In this document: positions 2,967-52,742 of the stretch, piece after piece
Layout: each line of letters opens with the position of its first letter
Numbering within the stretch: the first letter of the stretch is position 1
NCBI RefSeq assembly: GCF_018977255.1
Contig: NW_024704743.1
Span: 27,840,001-27,904,000, forward strand
Direction of reading: 5' to 3'
DNA length: 64,000 nt
Source: Callorhinchus milii
Lineage: Eukaryota
Notes under the pieces: generated by a model
The model's database searches: none
Told to the model about the DNA's origin: nothing
What the model saw: the letters and a program-made list of their open reading frames with translations, nothing else
Program-made: the position numbers and the translations under genes

Positions 2967-3365
2967 GTGAAGTTCTGTTGTTTAGTGGTTAGAGCACTCG
3001 CCTCGCAAGGGAGAGCACCTAGGTTTGATTCCCAGCAAGGCGAAATGTTGGGCAAGTTTTCTTACTCCACATGCCTCTGTTTACCTAGCAGTAAGTAGGC
3101 AGCTGGTTGTTAGTCAATAAGCGGATCGCTGTTCCGGGGGTAATAATCCGGGGTTAATAATCCTTCCCAAAATAATAAAATAATAATAATTTGGTCACTC
3201 AATCGATGACTGTTTGTGGGACACTGCTGTGCGCAATTGGCTGCTGTGTTTCACCCTCAAAATATACAGCCAATTCTCTTCACAGTATATTCTGTGGAGC
3301 ACTTTGATACATCTAGACGATGTGATAAAGCACTATATCAAATGCAAGGAATATTATTATTATAA
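2967..3365 (+). mobile_element. tRNA(Ala)-derived SINE, long variant
   Basis: Box A/B head (TAGTGGTTAGAGC...GGTTTGATTCCC), central CTGTTTACCTAGCAGTAAGTAGG block, Deu-like GTGGGACACTGCTGTGCGCAATTGGCTGC, (TAT)n tail. Confidence 0.9.
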
Positions 3366-4493
3366 TACACTCCCTCCCTCAATTGTGCTTACTTTTAGAA
3401 GCATGTATTTATTAAATGTTACCACCCCAATCCCACACAGAAAAGCAAAACTTTGATCATTTTGTATTTATAATAATGATAATAATCTTTACATCTGGTA
3501 CAGCACCTTTCATGTCAGAAGGATGTCTCAAAGAGCTCACAAGATACAAATATAATACAAATTTACATTTATGCGACGCCTTTCATGTCAGGAGGATGTA
3601 CTATAAAGTGGAGTGACTGTGTATTTTGTGGGTGCATTTGCAAAATATTTCCACTGCAGCCTCTATCTGTCGTGACCTTCACCCCCATTGTTCGGAGCAG
3701 ACGGGGAGGTCCCCACCTGAAAGAGTTCCCCACTTCCTTGGCTGTCGCGCTTTTAGCTGCTTCAAGCAAACTCCATTCAAGTGTTGTTAATCTGTGCAGA
3801 AATCCTCTGATGTCATCGGACCTGAGATGAGGGGGTTTCCAACACTTTGCAAATCTGCTCGGAAGCTGTGTGTTTTGATCTGTTACGACAACAGGCTTTT
3901 CCATTGGTTGCATTGCTGGAGATTGCCAGGAGCCAGTAATGCGCTGGCTAGTGCCTCAGCTAACGGATGCAATTTTTTGGCCTAACTGATTCATGCTGTG
4001 CTGCTAATCCACGTTTTCTTTCTCAGTCTCCGACAGCTTCTGGGTCTTATGTCAATTAGGTCAGGGGAAGTGCAGACAACCTTCCGGATACGTTTGGTCG
4101 TGTGGTACTGGCAGAAAATAGGAAAGGCAAGTGGTCAGGCAGTTTATAAAACAAAATTGTAATTGATGTGTTGCTAATTGATCACAAATTCAATAATTGC
4201 AGAAATCACTTGGTGCTTTATGGCCATGATAAAATCCAGCACACACGAGGGCTCGGGCATAGAAATTTGAACCTGGCAGCAGGCTAGGTGTATTGGGGGG
4301 GGCCACGGTGTGAAAGAGACTAAGTCTGTCAAATTACTCAATAGTTTTTAGTTTGTTAGTTGGAACATAAAAATGCCACTGCTGTGCTGTTGGATATGAA
4401 ATGCCTTGTTGACTTTTTAATATTTAACTGTTTTCATTAAGCCTAATATAGAAATCTGCAGTGCCAGGCTCCATTAGCAGCACAATTTTTTGG

Positions 4494-5455: not shown

Positions 5456-5766
5456 AATAATAATAACAATCCTTGTAGTTGATATAGCACTTTTCACGAC
5501 TTCTAGACGTCTCAAAGTGCATCACAGAATATGCTGTAAAGTGAATTGACTGTATATTTGTGGGCAAAACGCAGAAGCCAATTGCGCACAGCAGTGTCCC
5601 ACAAACAGTCATGGATTGAAAATGACCAATTTGTTATTGTTTTGGAAGGATTATTATTAGGCGTGTGGAGTAAGGAAACTTGCCCAAGATTTGCCCTGCC
5701 TGGAATTGAACCCAGGTATCTCGCTTGCAAGGTGAGTGCTCTAACCACTGAGCTACAGGACTCCAC
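5456..5766 (-). mobile_element. tRNA(Ala)-derived SINE, short variant, full length
   Basis: Reverse complement matches the 10207-10526 copy end to end. Confidence 0.92.
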
Positions 5767-10206: not shown

Positions 10207-10526
10207 GTGGAGTCCTGTAGCTCACTGGTTAGAGCACTCGCTTTGCAAGTGAGAGACCTGAGTTCAATTCCAGGCAGAGGGCGAAACCTTGGGCAAGTTT
10301 CCTTACTCCACACGCCTAATAATAATCCCTCCAAAACAAAAACTAATAATAAATTGGTCATTTTCAATCTACGACTGTTTGTGGGACATTGCTGTGCGCA
10401 ATTGGCTGCTGCGTTCGCCCACAAATATACAGTCAATTCACTTTACAGTGTGTTCTGTGAAGCGCTTTGGGACGTCCTCCCGACGTGAAAAGCGCTATAT
10501 CAAATGCAAGGATTATTTATTATTAT
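10207..10526 (+). mobile_element. tRNA(Ala)-derived SINE, short variant, full length, young
   Basis: GTGGAGTCCTGTAGCTCACTGGTTAGAGC head, anticodon arm with TGC, Deu-like body, L2-like tail, CpGs retained. Confidence 0.95.
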
Positions 10527-11629
10527 AGTATGCCACCATAACAATTAGAGAGATAGGTAATACCATAGATGTGAAGATCTGAAAAAAATCACATAAGCAC
10601 CAATTAACAGACAGCCACTGTATCATAGGCATAATACTGAAAGGCCATGGCACATGTTTGAAGATCAACTTTACTTAGATGACCACCATCAATCACAGAC
10701 AGCAAATAGTCCCAGATCCCACATGTTGAACTGGGCCATTTTAGAAGGCTGCTACTCTGCGTAGGAGAGGATTTTTTAAGGCAAAGGCTTTGGAGTAGTC
10801 AGGGCAGGTAAATCATTCTGCTCCAGTAGAGTACGCAACATGGGCCTTAGCAGCCAGAGCTTTCCCCAGAGCTTTCCTCTGTAAATTGTACGCTGGACTG
10901 TGTTATTGAGGGGGTTTGATCTATTTCACTTGGCAGCTGTTGAAACAAATGTCTGTGTATTATAGCTTTACATTCAAAAATACATAAATAGTAGCACTAT
11001 ACCAAAACAAAAGACACAGTCACTCCACTTTACAGTCCACCCTGTGAAGTGCTTTGGGATGATCTCCTGATGTGAACGGCATTAAACACAAATGCGAGGA
11101 TTATTATTATCAACATTTGGTATTCCTGCATAGCAAATTTATAATAGGAACCTCAACCACTCCACCCTCTCTAATGTAAAATACCTTTGCTGATTCCTGG
11201 CAGTTTGTTTCCTCAGATCTTGTAACAGAACCCAGAGCTTTGCTGATCCAACGCTTTGGAAGTTTCCATTCAATAGTGAAGCATTTAAGAGGCTTGATCA
11301 GTCCATGAATGGAGAAAGAAAAAGGGCGGTTTGAAATAATGTAACATTTTCAATCTCAAAGATGGTTTATTAAACTATTCTCATATATTTTTATTTTAGC
11401 AGCACATGACGACAATGTAAACACATTAAAAGTAGTCGTACACGTCTGGCAATGTTCGGCCAAGCATTGTGGCACAATGCCCTTCCCACACAGAACTCAG
11501 ATGCTGGTATTATTGTGGGATATGCTGTCTGACAATGTAGAGGTTCTGATATATTTTAAATTTGGTGGCTCTTGTCAAATTCCTGTTCGATATTCTTGTT
11601 TTTTTGACAATAGACAGTCTCCTTGTCAG

Positions 11630-31016: not shown

Positions 31017-31405
31017 TGTGGGGTGTACATAGCACTTGCCTTTTAGGAAGAGAGGAACAAAGAGGATATTTTAGATATGACTTTCTTTTTACAAGAAAAA
31101 TGCATTTTTAATGCACCTTATCTCATTGAAATGTATCTAACCTCTTGATACATGATTACTGCTGAGCGTATGCACTGTTTTCATAGGCAAACACAGCAGC
31201 CATTTGAGCCAAAGCAATCATGGGGAGAATGACCATTAATTTCCATCAAACAGTGAAAAATGGCAAAACATGAAACAAATAGATCACATTTTCTTAGTCT
31301 ATTTTCTTCCTCCAATTTTCTCCCCTTCATTCCTCTTGAACTTGTTTTAATTCCTTTTGTTCTAGCAGGGTATGGTGTACAAGTGCCGGTAAAGGTTGGG
31401 GTATT

Positions 31406-31725
31406 ATAATAATAATAATAATTCTTGCATTTGATATAGCGCTTTTCACGTCGGGAGGACGTCCCAAAGCACTTCACAGAACACACTGTAAAGTGAATTG
31501 ACTGCATATTTGTGGGCGAACGCGGCAGCCAATTGCGCACAGCAATGTCCCACAAACAGTCGTAGATTGAAAATGGCCAATTTATTATTGTTTTTGGTTT
31601 TGGAGGGATTATTATTAGGCGTGTGGAGTAAGGAAACTTGTCCAAGGTTTCGCCCTGCCTCGAATTGAATTCAGGTCTCTCGCTTGCAAAGCGAGTGATC
31701 GAACCACTGAGCTACAGGACTCCAC
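31406..31725 (-). mobile_element. tRNA(Ala)-derived SINE, short variant, full length, young
   Basis: Very close to the 10207-10526 copy; ends GAGCTACAGGACTCCAC. Confidence 0.95.
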
Positions 31726-40269: not shown

Positions 40270-40622
40270 GACAAGATGTAAAAGACCCTTTGGTTCATTT
40301 GTTCACATCTCTCCAGAATACTCATTCTACCATCTTTCCATCACAACATCAAGTTTTTTTTAAAAATGAGTCCAGTTTCCGGGTGTCAACCACCCATCCT
40401 GGAAAAACCTGTTCCAGTTGTTAATCACCTTCTGGATACAGAAAAAGTTCCCGATGTCAGTCTTGAGATTGCCCTTTGCAATTCTAAATCTATGTCCTCT
40501 TGTTCTACTGTCTTGGTACATCTTAAGATATTGTTCTGGCTTTACTTTTTAAATCTCATTTACTGTTTTGCATACCTCTACGAGATCTTCTCCAAGACAT
40601 CTCCTTACAAGATTGAAGAGCC
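40270..40622 (-). mobile_element. Degraded CR1 3' fragment
   Basis: Minus translation LGLFNLVRRCLGEDLVEVCK. Confidence 0.75.
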
Positions 40623-40699
40623 CTAATTTGTAATAATAATCTTTGCATTTGATACAGCGCCTTTTCACGTCTTTGAGACGACTCAAAGCGCTTGTTTTA

Positions 40700-41264
40700 A
40701 CCGTTTCCCACATGACTGCTCTAACGCCCTCCTCGCCGGTCTCCCATCCCCTACCATCCATAAAATCCAAATCATTCAAAATTCTGCCTCCCGCATTCTC
40801 ACCCGCACGAAACTCTGCTCCCCAGATCACCCCTGTCCTTGCCAGACTGCACTGGCTGCCTATCCCAGAGAGGATTGATTTCAAGATCCTCACCCTTGTA
40901 TTCAAGTCCCTGTACTCCTCTGCACCCCTACCTCTCTGACCTCCTCTCTCCTGAAAACAGTACCCGTTGCCTTTGTTCCTCCTGGTCTGGTCTCCTCCTT
41001 GTCCCCGAATCCTCCGCTCCACCCTCGGCGGCCGTGCCTTCAGCCAATATGCCCCGAGGCTCTGGAACTCCCTTCCTCACTCCCTTCGTCTCGCTCCCTC
41101 CCTTCCCATTTTTAGGTCTCTGCTGAAAACCTTTCTTTTCGACCGCGTCTTTGGTCACCTTCCCCTCCCCTCCCCCTGGCTTGGTCCCGGGATCCATTAC
41201 TGTGAAGCGCTCTGAGACGCCATCCGGCGTGAAGGTCGCTATATAAATCCAAGTTGTTGTTGTT
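40700..41264 (+). mobile_element. L2-clade LINE 3' fragment
   Basis: ITPVLARLHWLPIPERIDFKILTLVFKSL and GGRAFSQYAPRLWNSLPHSLR...FRSLLKTFLF; (TTG)n tail. Confidence 0.95.
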
Positions 41265-41460
41265 GAGGCAGGAAAATCCTATAATGAGATCCCATTAAAA
41301 GCAACGAAAATCACTGAGCCCACTGGATGGGAATGGGTTAAATGTCTTGAGCAGAAAATTGCAAATGGAATTGGTTTAGCTTTTAATTTTCAAAAGGAAA
41401 ATGACACCGGCTCAAAGTAACAATAATGTTTTAACTCAAAGTAACAATAATCTTGTACAG

Positions 41461-41617
41461 AACGCAAAATACTGCAGATGCTGGAAATATGAAACAAAAA
41501 CAGAAGTCGCTGAGAACACTCAGCAGGTCAGGCAGCATCTATGGAGTGAGTCAACGTTTCGGGTCCACGACCCTTCATCAGAACCACGATCGTTCCCAGC
41601 GACTTCTGTTTTTGTTT
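41461..41617 (-). mobile_element. Penelope-like terminal-repeat insertion with inverted segment and 14-bp target-site duplication
   Basis: Flanking ATAATCTTGTACAG at 41447-41460 and 41618-41631; inverted arms 41492-41517 / 41592-41617; related copies at 45135 and 48393. Confidence 0.8.
41549..41585 (-). ncRNA. Minimal type I hammerhead ribozyme motif
   Basis: Minus strand GGTT-CTGATGA-A-GGGTC-GTG-GACCC-GAAA-CGTT-GACT: conserved core, 5-bp stem II, palindromic AACGTT stem III. Confidence 0.65.
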
Positions 41618-42289
41618 ATAATCTTGTACAGTATGCTCCTGAGCAACTCAACTGTTTGAGATCACAGAAGCATAGCCCAAATCAGTATGTACTTGCTGGG
41701 TCAATAATGAGACTAAGCCTAGTCCTATCAGACATCAAACAACACCAAGGTTTTACTCTTTACAGTGTGAGAAAGTGTTTCTGGTGATAAAAGGTTGTGT
41801 CCGTCTCATGAACAAATACAAAAGCCGGATTCTGTCCCAACAGCAGGCTGATCAGATCCCTCTTCCTTTCCCCACCCCCTCAGCACTACGCGCCTGCTAG
41901 TTGTGAATGGAAGAGGGACACATGAATTCCCTCTGCTACGAGCAGCATGGCTGAAAAGATCTTATTTTACACATCGCTTCACAAATTTCTCAACATTGTC
42001 TCATATCTCATTGCTGGAAGCTGAATATCATGGGCTAATGAGACTTGGAGAAGCATCATACAGAACTGTTTAAATCAATTGTCTGCTTGTAACAAAGCTC
42101 CCTTAATGTGATAAATACAACCATTGTTTCAAACCAACAAATTCTTGTAGCTCACTTAAAACTGCCTTTAACGTACTTTCAAATCAACAGCACTCAGAAA
42201 GAATAGTGACCCAGCCTTTGGTTAAGCAAAAGCAAACCTTCACAGGCTGCCTTCAAATAGGCAAGCTTTGAGCTTATAATATTAACTAT

Positions 42290-42560
42290 CCTTATGTTTG
42301 ATGTATAGTGTCATACTTGTCAGTGAAATTTCTCAAAGCACGGTACGTGTAGTGACCGTGTATTTTGTAGGGGAATGTGGCAGCCAATTTGGACACAGAA
42401 AAGTCCCACAAACTGCCATGAAGTGAATGATCAATTTTATTTAAAGGTTTGCTGGTCAAGACACTAGGAGAAACTCCCTTTTCCTTTTGAACAGGCAGAT
42501 GGAACATCTCACCCGAAGGACGGAACCTCTGACAATGCAGCTCACCCCTAGCACTGCAAC
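42290..42560 (-). mobile_element. SacSINE1-like SINE, internally deleted
   Basis: Reverse Deu motifs. Confidence 0.75.
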
Positions 42561-42569
42561 TCCTCTCTC

Positions 42570-42705
42570 CCTCCCTTCCCTCCCCTCACCCTGACCATTT
42601 CCCCCCTGCTCGGGTCATGACCCAACTGTGCAGCGCCTTGGGACGTCCTCCTGACGTGAAAGGCGCTCTATAAATGGAATCTTGTTGTTGTTGTTGTTGT
42701 TGTTG
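42570..42705 (+). mobile_element. L2 3' end with (TTG)n tail
   Basis: CAGCGCCTTGGGACGTCCTCCTGACGTGAAAGGCGCTCTATAAAT. Confidence 0.85.
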
Positions 42706-42764
42706 CAATGGAGTATCAAGCTACTTGTGAGTTCAAAGTCCTGATAATGTGAATTTGAACTCAC

Positions 42765-43124
42765 AATAATAATAATAATAATCCTTGCATTTAATATAGA
42801 CATCTCAAAGAGCTTTACAGAATGTATTGTAAAGTGAATTGACTGTATATTTTGTGAGTGAAACGCGGCAGCCAATTGTGCACAGCAGTGTCCCACAAAC
42901 AGTCGTGGATTGAGTGACCAAATTATTATTTTTTTTGAAAGAATTATTTCCCCCAGAAAATCAATCCGCCAATTGACTAATAACCAGGTTCCTACTTACT
43001 GCTAGGTAAACAGAGGCGTATGGAGTAAGGAAACTTGCCCAACACTTCACCCTGCCAGGAATCGAACCCAGGTTTCTCTCACTTGGGAGGTAAGTGCGCT
43101 AACAGCTAAGCTACAGGGTTCCAC
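42765..43124 (-). mobile_element. tRNA-derived SINE, long variant, full length
   Basis: Head, central block, Deu body and tail all present. Confidence 0.92.
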
Positions 43125-44019
43125 AATCTTATGACTCAATGGCAAGAGAGCTACGATCTGAACCAAGCTGACAATTATAATGAGCCTCACTTTTGATATT
43201 GTGCCTATAAGTTTGAAATATCTCAAAGTGAATCACCAGTAACTGCTGTCACATTTGGTGACTGTTGTTATAAGCAACATGCAGCCAGCACGGTCGACGA
43301 GGAAGGTCTTTAGAAGGGACTTGAAGGAGACAAGACTCAGCGGTGTGAGTGCTACCAACTGAGCCAGACCAACTCCAATTTGATTGATGCCAATGCAGAG
43401 ATCGACTGTGAGTCTGGTTATGATTCAGTGATTACTTTTCAGGAGCTCAGCATCCAAAATGCAATGGTTCTGTTTTTCAAACATAACCTTGGAAGTGTGA
43501 CAGCAGATTCATGCCCTGCTTAGCTGTTGAGAGATCTCATTATTGCTGGCAAGACTGAACTCATGTAATTGCAGGCATAGGAAGGTGTATTTCATTCATT
43601 CTGTTGAACGTAAAATTATTTTTAGGCTATCGATTGGAAAAATCCTGATTTAGGGCCAGGGCCAGGTGTGGATTTTGTGCTTCTTCATCAGATAGTGGGC
43701 TAAAAATAATTTTGAAAAGTACAACATTTGAAGTTAAAAAGATGTTCCAGCAGTTAGGATTTAAAATAACAAAATCCATTGAAAATCTAAAACAAACACA
43801 GCCAAGTCCCATTATTTGAGTCCATAAAATGAGAGTCTGGTTTATAATTCTGTTCAGTGCATGAATGACATCACATACCAGATATTTCCCCTTTGTACCC
43901 TTATTATTTGTCCTTTTCTCTTGGACACCTCAATGAGCTCTGTATCTATGGTCTTCTGACTCAGTCCTTTCCACGTTCTCATCACCTTTTTTGGTTTCTG
44001 AACTGGAATTGTTTTGTTT

Positions 44020-44880
44020 GACGTCAACAAAACCGAGGCTCTCCTGATTAGCTCCCGTCAGCGTCTCCACACCTCAGGCTTTGTCAGCATCACCATCCAT
44101 GGTTGCACACTCCACCTTGCTAAGCCAGTCCGTAATCTTGGTGTCATGTTTGACCCTTAGCTATCCTTTCTACCCCACATCCATGCCATGACCCACTCTG
44201 CCTCCCCCACCTCCGCAACATCGCCCGGCTCCGACACTGTCTCACACCGGAGGCTGTCAAAACCCTCATACATGCATTCATAACATCCAGGCTTGACTAT
44301 GCAAACTCCTTGCTTGTCGGCCTCCCCAAATCCTCCCTCCATAGGCTGCAGATCATCCAGAACTCTGCAGTCCATGTCCTCTCCAACATCAGGTTCCGTG
44401 ATCCTATCATCCCCATCCTCACCTAACTCCACTGGCTTCCCATCACACAGAGGATACAGATCAAGATCCTGGGCCTCACCTTCAAAGCTCTCCATGGCCT
44501 AGCTCCCCCCCTACCTCTGTGACTTCCTAACCCCTTACCATCCTGCTCACTCCCTCTGCTCAGTGGGCTCCAGCCTGCTTCACGTCCCCTGCCTTGCCTG
44601 CCCCACCATTGGTGGGCAGGCCTTCTACCACTCTTCCCCCACCCTCTGGAACTCCATCCCGCAGTCCCTCCACCTCGCCCCCTCCCTTGCCTCCTTCAAG
44701 ACCCATCTCAAGAGCCTCCTCTTCGACCGTGCTTTCAATTACGCTCCATCTCCCACTACCCATCACCCTGCCCAATCCCGATCCCCAGCTCAGTTCTGAA
44801 ACACTGACTGTCCAGCTCCTTGGGACATCCTCCCGAGGTGAAAGTGCTATACAAATGGAATTTTGGTGGTGGTGTTGTTT
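44020..44880 (+). mobile_element. L2-clade LINE 3' fragment (~860 bp)
   Basis: Conceptual KTEALLISSRQRL, VRNLGVMFD, SRLDYANSLL, GGQAFYHSSPTLWNSIP, FKTHLKSLLF. Confidence 0.95.
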
Positions 44881-45134
44881 CTGAACTGCCTTTCACAAGC
44901 TAAGTTTTACTTTTGATGCACCAACCAGTTTTACTTGGTCAATATTCTTTGTTACTTTGAGCCCCTTACTCAGAACACTCAACACCTTACTCAGAATACT
45001 CAACAAATGATTTTATTCCAAGTGGCATCCTGGTGAAATATCACTGGACTTCCACCGAGGTCAATATATCCTTTCTCATATCCTTCCATGCTTCAGTGAG
45101 CTGCCAAACGGTGAACCAATTGAGTTCTAACCAC

Positions 45135-45400
45135 AACCAGAGATCACTGGGAACACTCAGTAAGTCAGGCAGCATCTATGGAGAAAGGAAAGTGGGTCAG
45201 TGTTTCGGGTCCATGACCCTTCGTCAGAACCGGGGCATGTTGGGAGGGAGAGTTTTTTAAGGACTAACAGAGAGGGGAGGCAGGATAAGGAAGACAAAGG
45301 AGAAAACGGGGTGGAAGGCAGGTGGGTTAAAGAGGTGTTAATGATGCAAAACAAAGGAAGACAGCAGAGGCTGACCCGAGAAAGAAAAGGTGTAACAGAG
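45135..45400 (-). mobile_element. Penelope-like fragment with mutated hammerhead motif (45196-45230)
   Basis: Minus CTGACGA-A-GGGTC-ATG-GACCC-GAAA-CACT; flanks match the 41461 insertion; followed by a purine-rich tract on the + strand. Confidence 0.7.
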
Positions 45401-46054
45401 AGATGTTTGAAACTCAGGTAGTAGATGAGTAGGAGGCTGCAGTTCAGCAGCTTGAAGGTCTAGTGCGACGCAGAGAGCTGATTTGCCCCATTCTTTAAAC
45501 AGCAGAAGTGCCCTTATTTTTAGAATAGGAACTGCTGAAGACTGTAGCACTGTGGTATACTGTCGCCATTAGTACATTGTGTGCTTAGAGCTGGGTTTCC
45601 AAAATCCAGGCCTGCTGGCCAGACAGTCAGATAGCAAACTGTTAGGCTTGGGAGGAGAATGCGGTAGGTTTTTGTGATGGAACATGTTTACTGGAGTGTG
45701 GGGCTTTACCTGCCCGTGAGGCCTGAGCTAAAGGGAGAAAAGGTGAGAATGGTAACACAAGTGCAATGGCACAGGACAGGACACATTCGGTCATCTCTGT
45801 AAATTGTCTTGATTTAAAGATTTAGGTCAGCCCTCTGCTGCTTTACTTACATAAATGGGAGGAAAATAATTGAGGTACACTTGTTTCCTTAATATTTGAC
45901 GATGATATTTTCAGTCCTTCTATGGAGTTCTAAACGTGCATCACTTTGACCTCTGCTCTGACATGCCCACCAGGTGATTATGTGGGAACACAGTTCAAGA
46001 GTCCAGGAAAACAACTTCCAAATTAAGTCTAAAGTTTTAAGAACTTTCCAAAAT

Positions 46055-46300
46055 TCACAACATCACAAGATTGGTTTGGTTTCCACTGTCCTGGCCTCCA
46101 CCTCCTTTCTTAGCAACTTGTTCCAATCATTGATTACCCTCTGAGTAAAGAACTCCCTGATATCTGCGCTAACATTACCCTTCACAACTCAAAACCTATG
46201 TCTTCTTGTTCTACTGCCTTGTTGCATCCTTGAGTATTGATCTGTGTTTACTTTTCCAATCTGTTTTAAAAATGTATGAGGTTTCCTGAGTCATCTTCTC
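46055..46300 (-). mobile_element. Degraded CR1 3' fragment
   Basis: Resembles 40350-40600 (TTGTTCCAATCATTGATTACCCTCTGAGTAAAGAA). Confidence 0.65.
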
Positions 46301-46996
46301 CTTTAAAGATTCTAAATTCTCATAAAGCTAAGACCATGGGGATTTTGCAAGATGTCCATTATAAACTGTTTGGAAAACATATTGCAATAAATTTGCAGTC
46401 TTCTCATGTTTTGAATCACTGACTGAGCAATTTCTGGCTTGTAGCACAAAGCATACAAAACAAATAATTTGTTTTCCTAATTATTTTGTCAACTTATTTG
46501 CTCTACCGTAATATTCTGAACTGTCTGTAAGAAGCTGCTATTACCATTAATTATATCTTTCTGTGATGTCTACAGTAATTCAACTTACGTTACTATTAAA
46601 TTACTGTTATTATTTGAGAAATTGATTGCAGGTTACTTACCGAACTTATCAAAGCCGTTCATAAAGTGTTAGATTGAGGATTAATGAGCCAGTGTTCACA
46701 CTAAACCTCAGGAGATGTTCCTTCATAATTACAGATGCATCTGATAATAAGAAATTTTAATTTTAGAAGGCGAAAGGATCAGAAGTCTTTTCTCTCACTG
46801 ATTGTGCCTTCACCCACCTTCCATCTCCCAGTCGACCGTCTCTCCCACCTCCCCCTCCCCCCCCACCCCCAGCAATCCCCCACCTTGATCGGGATATCTG
46901 TAAACCATGTTGAGGTGTTTTGAAAGTTGTTGTTGATTCAAGTGTTGTGATATTGGACTAGTGTTTTTTTTACCTGTAGATTTAGTCTGCAACTTT

Positions 46997-47365
46997 AGTC
47001 CTGTAGCTCAGTAGCTAGAGCACTCGCCTCGCAAGCGAGAGATCTGGGTTCGATTCCCAGCAGGACGAAAAGTTGAGCAAGTTTCCTTACTCCACACGCC
47101 TCTGTTTACCTAGCAGTAAGTTGGAACCCGGTTGTTAATCGTTCGGGTATCACTTTTCCGGAGGTATTAATTCCTTCAAAAAATAAAAAATAATAATAAT
47201 TTGGTCAGTCAATCCACGACTGTTTGTGGGACACTGGTGTGCGCAATTGGCTACTGCATTTCGCCTACAAAATATACAGTCAATTCACTTTACAGGATAA
47301 TCTGTGAAGCGCTTTGCGAAGACATGATAAGGTGCTATGTTAAATATAAGGATTATTATTATTAT
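46997..47365 (+). mobile_element. tRNA(Ala)-derived SINE, long variant, full length
   Basis: Anticodon arm CTCGC-CTCGCAA-GCGAG (CGC = Ala), box B GGTTCGATTCC, central block, Deu body, tail. Confidence 0.93.
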
Positions 47366-47952
47366 AAATCAGTGGTTACTCGCTTGCTACCTAATATTCT
47401 TGTAGCATTCATAATGAGGATACCGTGTGATTTTTTATAGACCTTCAAAAGAGATGGATAATATTGAGTAGAAGTAACTTGTGTCGAGATCTGTTGATGT
47501 TCAGTCCTGAATCTCAACGAGTTAACCAGTTTTCCTCGCAAATCAGCCATTCTGGTGCTAACTACTAATTTATATGGCCTGATATGGTGCCAGTTCCCCG
47601 ACCACCAGTAGCGAACATTATCAGGGCAGATCTGGAATGCTATATCTCCACGTGATGTGAGGGAGATGAATATTATGATATTTACTGCATCATATCAGAT
47701 ATTGGGGTCTGATATTCAGAATTTCTGAGAAAATTATTCAGTGAGGAATCCCTTTGGAAAATCTGCCAATCCGTGGGAACACCTCTCCAGAAGTATTGTT
47801 AGAACAAACCCTACATCTGGACATTACTGTTAGTCACTGGATTAAGTCACCATTTGTGCAAGTTGATTTCTTATTGCAGGATTCGAGTAAAAAAAACACT
47901 ATAATTCAGATCCCATTTATCCTTCTGTTTGACATTTTGTAGATGGAAAATT

Positions 47953-48192
47953 ACCTGTTCAGATGGACGTGAAAGATCCCATGGCACTATTTGAAAAGTG
48001 AAGGGAGTTTCTCCCAGTTTCCTGATCAACCATCCCCCAAATAAAATTGGTCATTCACTTCATGACTGTTTGTGGGACATTGCTGTGCCTCATTCACTTT
48101 CAAAATACCCAGTCAGTACATTTTACAGTAACTGCTTTGAAGTGCTTTGAGACCTCCTCTCGACATAATATGCTTTATCAAATGTAAGGATT
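47953..48192 (+). mobile_element. SacSINE1-like SINE 3' part
   Basis: GGACGTGAAAGATCCCATGGCACTATTTG Deu motif. Confidence 0.8.
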
Positions 48193-48392
48193 GTGCTAGT
48201 ACTGGAGAGCTGAAAGTTTAGTAGGAAACAAATCCTTACCACATAGAAATAATGCTTAAAGAAAAATTGCCACAAAATGCCTCATTCACACAGCATCAAA
48301 TTGTGCTCGCCCCATATTGTACTGTTTATACTCAGGTAACACGTGGATGCAAGAAAAAAGAAAGATGCAGGTGTTTCAGAATGATGTTGAGG

Positions 48393-48520
48393 ATAAAAAC
48401 AAAACACTGCAGATGCTGGCATCTGAAACAAAAACAAAGAGAGCTGGGAATACTCAGCAGGTCAGACAGCATCTTTGGAGAAAGGAAAGTGAGTCAACGT
48501 TTTGGTTCCACAACCCTTCT
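48393..48520 (-). mobile_element. Penelope-like terminal fragment, hammerhead core decayed
   Basis: ACTGCAGATGCTGG...ACTCAGCAGGTCAGACAGCATC...GTCAACGTTTT matches the 41461 copy. Confidence 0.75.
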
Positions 48521-49208
48521 GATGTTGAGGATAGTTTGTTTCACGTCAGATCGATAGTAATCTAAAATGTTGGACTTAGCACTGAAACCCTTAAGACCCA
48601 AAAATAGAGCTAAAAATAGTGAACTGTTCATTGTTTGTATATGGTGTATATGGTCATGATCAAGCAAGGAAATGATTGTTCTGAACAGATTGCTATTTTT
48701 AACAATCAGCAGGTCTGATAGATTCTCAACGTGCAGTTTACCAAAAGCTATATCTAGAAGTATTGTGGAAGATTTTGCAACAGCCATATCACTGCCAATA
48801 ATTGACTGAACTCCATGGCTTGGAGTGCTACAGTACTAAATGGTGGCAGACACAGCACCCATTACTTTCTCTGTGGTTGAGGAAGATTCAGATGGAACAT
48901 TACGTCTAGAAGATTTTCATCAGTTTTTTACTTCATTATTCAGTTATTAATAGTGCAGTAAGAGAAGCACTTCCACCCCTTTCCCCTTCCTACAACAAAG
49001 AGAATTTACAATCTTTTTGAGGGCATTTACCTTTGCTTGAAATTAAATATTGGGAATAGAAAGTATTCATAATTTGAAGGTTGCTTCTAGACCTGCAACC
49101 CTGGGAAAATATTACAGTGATGATTGATCCCACAGTGCAGTAACAGCAGGAAAGAGGAGTCAGCGGAAGAGCTGTCAGAGCAGTCTTCAATGTCCTCGCT
49201 TTTCACAG

Positions 49209-49341
49209 TTGCAGTAAGCACACATGCCAGGGTGCACCAAGCTGCCCATGTAAAGTTTAATGAACTCAGTTCGATGACTAACTTTTTGTGCAAGGAGACT
49301 CTGGACTTTGCTCATCACCTGCAGCTTCTGGAGACTATTAT
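49209..49341 (+). other. Possible isolated spliced exon (coding status unknown)
   Basis: Pyrimidine-rich acceptor ...CCTCGCTTTTCACAG and donor AT|GTGAGT; one open frame; peptide not recognised. Confidence 0.25.
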
Positions 49342-50974
49342 GTGAGTGTGGGCCAATAGGGTTTTTGTGGGTATAACTTGAACAATACATTTATAGATTT
49401 ACTGTACTCATCAAAAAGAACTCCACTATGTAGCCAAATTCCCTTGTTTCTAAGCAACTGAAGAGTGGTTGGAAAAGAATTTTTTGAGTTGGGCTTGAAA
49501 CAAGCAGCTCTGTTATTATCTGCTCAGAACTGGTTTGGCACAATTTGATTTCAACCTTCCGTTTATACATGCATCCCTTGTAAAAAGATGATATGTGGCA
49601 GTGGGTTGTTGAGTTTGAAAAAAAATCTACTCAGCGAGTGGCCTGACCCACATTATCCGTGAATGGGAATGTTTCTCATGGCTTAATGTGTTTGTGATGG
49701 TTGGGTTATGACGAATTGAATATTTTTCACGATTGCCAATCTTCCATACAAGCGACTGTTTATTGCTACTTCAGACTTTTGTTTTGCTGTTTGCAAGCGC
49801 TTGTTTTTTTGCTAGTTTTTTGTTCATAAGCTGAATAACTTTCCCAAATTTGGAATTGCAGCTAATGAGATTGGGTGAAAGAGTAGAAACTGTCTCACAT
49901 CCTTGAAACATTAAGTGATTACTCTGGCAGTTCAGTGGTTGAGTGCATTACAAGTTTAATCTCTATTCTGAGATGAATTAGCTTAGCTCAAGTAGGGTTG
50001 GCCTCAGTGCCTGTGGGTATGGAAGGAGGTAAAAATTTGGCTTGGAAATGCAATATGTGATGTGATGATTATCGTTGGTGAAACACATTGCTCCCCAGGC
50101 AGCAACAGTGACTGCAGTCAGAGGCTTCTAATAATAATAATAATCCTTGCATTTGACACAGTACCTTATCAAGTCATTGAGACGTCTTGAAGCGCTTTAC
50201 AGATTATTCTATAAATTGAATTGACTGTATATTTTTGCTGGCTAAACTTTCTGCCAGCTTTCAGCCAAACCATTGTGGTCAAGTAGAAACGGTGTGAGGA
50301 GGGTATGGATGTGGGGAGGGTGTGGGTGGGGGATAGTATTTCACTTTCTTAATGTTTGGTGACTCTAGTGACTATCCTCTTTGGCTAGTGACTATCCTCC
50401 TTGGTGACTTAAATGCATGTGGTAATGTATAGGCTGAGTAGCAGGTCTGTTGTCACAAACTGTACAAAGTTGCCTTCAGTCTTGGTTGGAAAGGATGAAG
50501 AATGTAATAACCTCTTATGTAAACTCACACTACAGAGCCAGTTCTATCATGCAGAGTACTTTGATACCTGCACCAAAAAACGTTTTGACTCATGGCCTAT
50601 ATTTATCAGCAGTACTTTGTGCTCTTCCATTTGTTGGCCTTATCATATCTTGGAATGGAAAACATTCCCAACCAACCCTCATTTAGATTCCAGTCAAATA
50701 CACAATGCAGGCACTGATTACTGAAGTTGTCAGGACCAAAAACTGTCACCACAGGTTCTTTGTGACAATAGTGCTGCCGTTCGTAGTTAGTGTGACCTTG
50801 ACCCGATCGAGATTGAGTGAGTTCACCAGTGTTCTAAATGCAGTTTATAGATTGAAGCTTCCTGGCATTGGGCCCTAGAAGGCTTCAGATGCATTGCTTA
50901 GCAACTGGACTGCTAACATTAAACTTGTGCTAAAATTTGATTTGTTCTGGGTAGTGATAAAGCTAAAACTGGTG

Positions 50975-52255: not shown

Positions 52256-52742
52256 ATAATAATAATAATTGCATTTGATGTAGCGCTTTTCACATCTTCT
52301 AGACGTCTCAAAGCACTTCACAGAGTATACTGTAAACTGAATTGACTGTATATTTTGTGAGGGGAAATGCGATAGCAAATTGCACACAGCAGTGTCCCAC
52401 AGTCGTGGATTGAGTGACCAAATTATTATTGCTTTTTTTGAGGGATTATACTGTAAACTGCATACTGTCAAGTGAATTTACTGTATATTTTGTGGGGGAA
52501 ATGCGATAGCCAATTGCGCACAGCAGTGTCCCACAAACAGTCGTGGATTGAGTGACCAAATTATTATTGGGTTTTTTTGAGGGATTATTATCCCCAGAAA
52601 AGCGATCCGGCAATCGACTAATAACCAGGTTCCTACTTACTGCTCGGTAAATAGAGGTGTGTAGAGTAAGGAAACTTGCCCAACATTTCGCCCTGCCGGG
52701 AATTGAACCCTTGCGAGGTGAGGCTCTAACTACAGGACTCCA
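52256..52742 (-). mobile_element. tRNA-SINE long variant with internal tandem duplication of the body
   Basis: Segment ATACTGTAAACTG...GAGGGATTA occurs twice (about 52327-52448 and 52449-52586). Confidence 0.9.

Follow-up and report, generated by a model that had tools for sequence, protein, structure and literature searches.

Structure of the insertion

A 157-bp insert lies between two exact 14-bp copies of ATAATCTTGTACAG in the window (the whole stretch of 64,000 nucleotides that was analysed), as set out in Table 1. Exact 14-mer direct repeats spaced 60–400 bp apart numbered 11 in the real window, most of them within other repeats, versus five in all 30 dinucleotide shuffles of the 64-kb window, a mean of 0.17 per shuffled window. 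Seven of the 11 come from a local duplication of ca. 120–140 bp within SINE-like sequence at 52326–52590.

Alignment with a sibling copy confines the likeness to the repeat family to 41461–41585, and the insert is therefore read as a main copy, a junction and an inverted arm. The main copy is 125 bp of the 3' end of a repeat. On the sense (minus) strand the order is the 26-bp inverted piece, which lacks the tail, the 6-bp junction, the hammerhead motif, 61 bp from its cut site to 41492, and the 31-bp tail (41491–41461). The initial annotation had described the end of the insert as an inverted copy of an internal 26-bp segment (41492–41517); the inversion holds, but the copy is not exact, with one mismatch in 26 nt (25/26). 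At that mismatch, opposite 41513, it is the arm that carries the letter of the family majority. The junction and two bases of the arm form an 8-bp palindrome (41586–41593), and a 4-bp inverted match lies on either side of the junction (41581–41584 and 41592–41595). The ATG at 41538 is common to all three copies in the window and would fit the start of an ORF inside the end repeat, making it a candidate start for the parent ORF.

Table 1. Coordinates of the insertion, its parts and the sibling copies in the window
Feature	Position	Strand	Evidence or remark
Left copy of the target-site duplication, 14 bp	41447..41460	.	Exact repeat; the X9 empty site has a single target motif
31-bp tail, a 3'-terminal extension at this insertion end only; stops at the distal 3' end of the family	41461..41491	-	Length; cluster of loose ends at 41457-41464 in each of the four runs; sibling 48396-48519 in the same register
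ATG-led 26-codon frame, open to the insert end; candidate start of the parent ORF	41461..41538	-	ATG common to both siblings
Element end, from the hammerhead to the proximal 3' end; 9 bp missing relative to siblings and family reads	41492..41548	-	Three-copy alignment; loose ends at 41545/41546; proximal-end cluster at 41491-41496
Hammerhead motif of the minimal type I, with an intact core; cleavage predicted after U17 (41553)	41549..41585	-	Fits the published consensus (Fig. S3 of PMC4209133)
Junction of 6 bp linking the main copy to the inverted arm	41586..41591	.	Sequence and alignment
Inverted, 5'-truncated 26-bp copy without tail; 3' end at the proximal family end (register 41492)	41592..41617	+	Inverted repeat; same register as the start of sibling 45129
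Right copy of the target-site duplication	41618..41631	.	Exact repeat; junction spanned by contigs in runs X5 and X2
Longer sibling, ending at the proximal 3' end and continuing past the hammerhead for ca. 200 bp upstream; 5' limit uncertain	45129..45460	-	Cleavage-site region mutated
Tail-ended sibling, truncated within the hammerhead core, no inversion	48396..48519	-	Own exact 14-bp duplication, 48382-95 / 48520-33

Sibling copies in the window

Two siblings lie within 7 kb of the insert and are ca. 78–79% identical to it over the aligned parts; a profile search of the window found no further credible copy. The three copies have three different 5' ends, and 14-bp duplications are present at two of the three, equal in length in both short copies. 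For the longer sibling no convincing target duplication was found, the best candidate matching at 9 of 10 positions among many tries. Its 3' end coincides exactly in register with that of the inverted arm (41492), its stem III and cleavage positions are changed, and the ca. 200 bp upstream are a pyrimidine-rich tract. Nine bp kept in both siblings are missing from the studied copy.

Directly before the shared ATG there is a pyrimidine tract followed by AG (45176–45195 on the minus strand, and in the same place in the other copies), which resembles a 3' splice site. The 9-bp deletion of the studied copy takes out much of this tract. A two-copy 21-bp tandem repeat at 44964–45005, 120 bp from the longer sibling, has a short resemblance to the element end.

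Empty site, age and family size

Four of the 24 sequencing runs listed were aligned to 41270–41990 at 80% likeness: X5 and X2 from organism A, X9 from organism B, and X10 from organism C. One contig of X9 covers 41296–41448 and 41653–41861, with 17 and 24 differences (ca. 11%) and 30 letters between the two parts. Compared by eye, these bridging letters match one copy of the target and the right flank, with 23 of 30 in agreement. The contig is an empty site in organism B. Because it joins the flanks with one target copy and no insert, the 14-bp repeat is a true target-site duplication, and the duplication around a 157-bp insert that the initial annotation had proposed is borne out.

In both same-species runs, X5 and X2, a contig extends from 41556 to 41990, through the arm and the right duplication, with 3 differences in X5 and 1 in X2; presence of the insert in these runs is read from the right junction, the left junction having no cover in either. 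No empty joint was seen in X5 or X2 among the 15 joints listed (of which there are 66 more). In X10, both flanks have equal depth; organism C was not counted as having an empty site, since no such joint was among those listed. None of the listed runs is recorded as RNA; X2 is only guessed to be RNA, and its cover was therefore not counted as transcription.

With the site empty in organism B and filled in two of two runs from organism A, the insertion postdates the split between A and B and can serve as a presence/absence marker separating them. The insertion had earlier been called recent, which is true only in this relative sense, for flanks that have diverged by ca. 11%; it is present in both same-species runs and differs from the family majority at 41489, 41513 and 41577 and by the 9-bp deletion, among the differences listed (16 more).

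The family is large. Contigs belonging to it number 8677 in X5, 2921 in X2, 15,433 in X9 and 16,249 in X10, which are counts of contigs and not of copies, with depth almost wholly over 41445–41594. It was active after the A/B split and is common to organisms A, B and C.

The left flank contains a tandem near-duplication of 24 bp (41411–41434 and 41435–41458, alike at 21 of 23 positions), which extends into the left target copy. Since the X9 contig aligns without gaps through most of the pair, the near-duplication may be older than the insertion. In the right flank there is an imperfect 19-bp inverted repeat with a 24-nt spacer (41857–41918).

The hammerhead motif

The minus-strand CTGATGA/stem II/GAAA-CGTT motif of the initial annotation is present at 41585–41549. 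It consists of GGUU (41585–41582), CUGAUGA (41581–41575), an A, GGGUC-GUG-GACCC (41573–41561), GAAA, CGUU (with U17 at 41553) and GACU (41552–41549). Stem II has 5 bp and a 3-nt loop, and stem I has 4 bp, two of which are G-U pairs. A relaxed hammerhead descriptor matched once in the real window and in none of the 30 shuffles. Stem II is identical in two of the three window copies and decayed in the third. One of the majority changes listed (16 more) falls within the core, at 41577, which is the freely varying position N7.

According to Cervera and De la Pena 2014 (PMC4209133), minimal hammerheads of metazoan Penelope-like elements (PLEs) conserve an unpaired base between positions 9 and 10.1, a short helix I and a palindrome at 15.2–16.2. 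The sequence features of this type are present here: the consensus core CUGANGA, one unpaired base after A9, G10.1-C11.1, stem II, GAAA, the palindromic remnant of stem III and a short stem I. The consensus in the supplement of that paper fits the motif position for position, and its Tetraodon Poseidon row has the same C-G-U-U ending; supplement file 2 of the paper has no shark, Callorhinchus or Leucoraja entry. Differences are slight – the 5-bp stem II is at the short end of the published range, and stem I has its two G-U pairs. The extra A and the 3–4 bp stem I, earlier listed as peculiarities, are therefore real (with a stem I of 4 bp), but they belong to the published consensus and are not an oddity. 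A search with covariance models had also been suggested; Rfam models gave no hammerhead match at the gathering threshold in the whole window, nor at E up to 10 over 41300–41800. Because the motif fits the published minimal consensus, this miss is attributed to a limit of the models.

The predicted fold with stems I and II lies 3.5–4.4 kcal/mol above the best fold, and in the whole insert the predicted probability is 0.18 for stem II and at most 0.06 for stem I. The inverted arms are predicted to form a 26-bp hairpin, and the energy gap of the active fold is unchanged by the arm. The ACGU palindrome would allow an intermolecular stem III. In PMC4209133 a tested PLE motif showed no cleavage as a monomer and low cleavage as a dimer, and for dimer cleavage PMC6765202 cites Lunse et al. 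The two siblings lie on the same strand, but their cores are broken, which leaves no nearby partner for a dimer in cis.

The hammerhead belongs to the end repeat of the parent and is most likely an inert passenger at this locus. Retention or co-option of the copy by the host, as a functional ribozyme or an RNA hairpin within one of its transcripts, is extremely unlikely. It is the sole copy in the window with an intact core, and its arms could supply the hairpin, but a young copy is expected to have an intact core in any case. The insert is also lineage-specific, being missing from organism B; the active fold is disfavoured, as described above; the siblings, as potential dimer partners in cis, have broken cores; and no host gene was found by Pfam among 182 ORFs of the window.

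Two 3' ends and recurrent inversions in the family

At the 3' side of the element, the 24 loose ends listed (735 more) include seven at 41457–41464 and five at 41491–41496. Most have a median length of 228–255, an agreement of 0.37–0.46 and an A-rich consensus; genuine ends that run into unrelated flanking sequence would be expected to be long and of low agreement. The family thus has two 3' ends ca. 30 bases apart in all four runs, and the studied insert uses both, one for the main copy and the other for the inverted arm.

Inversions recur as well. Ten of the 15 joints listed (66 more) link opposite strands, and nine of these ten end at 41581–41585, while the far side varies from 41499 to 41546. 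The studied copy, in which 41517 is joined to 41585, is a member of this class, which occurs in all four runs. Clustering near 41584/41585 is a biased measure of the 5' side, because anything beyond 41585 is clipped where likeness to the reference ends; only the joints at 41581 and 41583 fall inside the reference likeness.

The same cluster bears on the nature of the parent, which might be a short, non-autonomous, SINE-like PLE derivative that starts just upstream of the hammerhead and is mobilised in trans, in which case the 125-bp copy would be near full length. The main copy does stop at the 5' edge of stem I, where the nine listed joints also end, the loose ends behind 41584 are long and of low agreement (0.35–0.41) in all four runs, and non-autonomous PLE partners are described in Chlamydomonas (Craig et al. 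preprint; PMC9977147). Such a parent is nevertheless improbable. The pile-up at 41584 is partly forced by the reference, and the longer sibling continues for ca. 200 bp upstream, into sequence that agrees with the consensus of the X2 loose ends behind 41584 and resembles that of the X5 ones. The other sibling stops inside the core, and three copies with three 5' ends argue against a fixed start.

Probable assignment to Penelope-like elements

The insert is very probably a 5'-truncated copy, dead on arrival, of the 3' end of a Penelope-like retrotransposon that is abundant and bears an endonuclease. Its PLE marks are 5'-truncated copies with common 3' ends, a one-sided 31-bp tail and an adjacent inverted 5'-truncated copy. 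Tails of 30–40 bp on one end only were applied as a mark of membership, and here the tail is 31 bp and the arm has none; a target duplication of variable length was counted as a further mark from the 14-bp duplications and the X9 empty site.

The search for linked GIY-YIG or reverse transcriptase (RT) ORFs that had been proposed earlier came back empty. Pfam gave nothing at its cut-off for the 182 ORFs of the window, and three matches below it, none of them RT or GIY-YIG. These ORFs were all 174 of at least 72 aa together with 8 of 31 shorter ones near the longer sibling, a set in which short exons would be missed. There is no full-length copy within the 64-kb window. An alignment of the three ATG-led frames, used for a homologue search, yielded 85 candidates and no homologue at E up to 10; the query was weak, because half of each frame is flank. 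Pattern scans found no loci in viral contigs and none in metagenome contigs. Three loci in prokaryote genomes were rejected as chance matches of 21–22 nt in DNA of 66–68% GC with no further likeness. With no RT or GIY-YIG ORF linked to the insert, PLE membership rests on architecture; the earlier proposal, that of a Penelope-type insertion whose 5' end is inverted, is upheld by that architecture and by the behaviour of the family, but not by a linked gene.

The architecture itself is well documented. In the rotifer Penelope elements of Arkhipova et al. 2013 (PMC3846280), an inverted pLTR is adjacent, a 31-bp tail is found at one end, target duplications are 8–10 bp, palindromes occur at junctions, and the first residues of the ORF run into the pLTR and tail. 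Craig et al. (bioRxiv 10.1101/2021.04.23.441226) give the inverted pLTR and one-sided tail as the general structure of PLEs, and PMC8969392 repeats the inverted end and tail as curation guidance. The insert shares with these endonuclease-positive units (PMC3846280, Craig et al.) a head-to-head inverted and truncated 5' copy, a 31-bp tail at one end only, a target duplication of variable length, a palindrome at the inverted junction and an ATG-led frame running into the tail. It is far smaller (157 bp, with no ORF), and its duplication is 14 bp versus 8–10 bp in the rotifer examples. De novo PLE insertions in Chlamydomonas have a median of 128 bp (PMC9977147).

The Poseidon element of Anolis carolinensis was described by Frangieh et al. 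2024 (PMC11167929), who reported two internal RT start sites that bound the tail and the cutting and extension of both strands, together with a predicted dimer, hammerhead cleavage assisted by protein, and uncut RNA as the main template. Like Poseidon, the family here has a tail that lies downstream of the hammerhead and is delimited by two 3' ends, an AT-rich target and copies that span the uncut hammerhead. The Poseidon ORF starts at stem II, whereas in the present element the corresponding frame is closed immediately, and its candidate ATG is 15 nt past the cut site, a comparison made by description only.

The initial annotation had also offered a non-autonomous, retrozyme-like unit as an alternative, and as a monomer of a non-LTR retrozyme the insert would derive from a tandem hammerhead repeat that is expressed as circular RNA and then reinserted. 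Non-LTR retrozymes (PMC7229834, Cervera and de la Pena 2020; Li et al. 2026 preprint) are, like the insert, non-coding, PLE-related and equipped with a type I hammerhead; a cDNA that crosses the cut site would be expected from a circle; and solo monomers and a chondrichthyan retrozyme family have been reported (bioRxiv 10.64898/2026.07.22.740005). A retrozyme origin is still very improbable. No tandem of the unit exists in 40500–49500, the three window copies differ in their 5' ends, there is a single hammerhead of minimal and not canonical type, the sequence upstream of the hammerhead is not a wrapped-around tail, and both the tail and the inverted arm are characteristic of PLEs.

Read as a PLE copy, the insert is a new specimen of an insertion pattern that has already been described – real, well formed and ordinary. 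No published description of this particular family was found in a listing at the level of titles, and Repbase or Dfam may already include it.

A model for the insertion

The insert was probably produced by priming at two nicks. A protein that we infer to be the element's own would nick the two strands of an AT-rich target at positions 14 bp apart. One of these nicks would prime reverse transcription at the distal start site, and 125 nt of what is presumed to be uncut RNA would be copied, from the tail through the hammerhead cut site, until synthesis halted at the 5' edge of stem I. From the other, a second copy, only 26 nt long, would be primed at the proximal start site. The two cDNA ends would then be joined head-to-head via the short palindromic junction, and repair would fix the duplication. 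Two-nick priming would account for the one-sided tail and for an arm that stops at the second family end.

An alternative in which synthesis folds back and the stretch between the 4-bp matches beside the junction is then deleted seems rather unlikely; it explains the junction, but leaves the end of the arm at the proximal site unexplained. In LINE-1 twin priming the arm does not repeat sequence that has already been copied, unlike the arm here; because the present arm does repeat such sequence, a second RNA, or re-use of the first, is required. A junction templated from loop II was rejected, the 6-nt match being within chance.

More tentatively, the family as a whole may work in this way, with the target nicks primed at two different RT start sites by a protein dimer, and with the upstream edge of stem I, not the cut site, as the usable 5' limit of the uncut RNA. 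If this is true, thousands of duplication-flanked mini-insertions would let the origin of PLE inverted ends and one-sided tails be tested by counting. The single locus matters little, being one of very many dead copies. It is a tidy specimen, with an intact core, an exact duplication, a relative with an empty site and both 3' start sites used within 157 bp. The family could be used to test models of how PLE inverted ends form and whether the hammerhead cut precedes reverse transcription.

Other repeats in the window

A SINE-like repeat with a tRNA head has many copies in the window, including 2971–3366, 5456–5766, 10207–10530, 31402–31725, 42759–43124 and 46997–47367. Six of the heads pass the Rfam tRNA threshold, and the one at 46997–47068 scores 68 bits. 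Another repeat, at 40826–41266, has copies elsewhere in the window; it ends in a TTG run ca. 180 bp to the left of the insertion, and it resembles the 3' end of a LINE.
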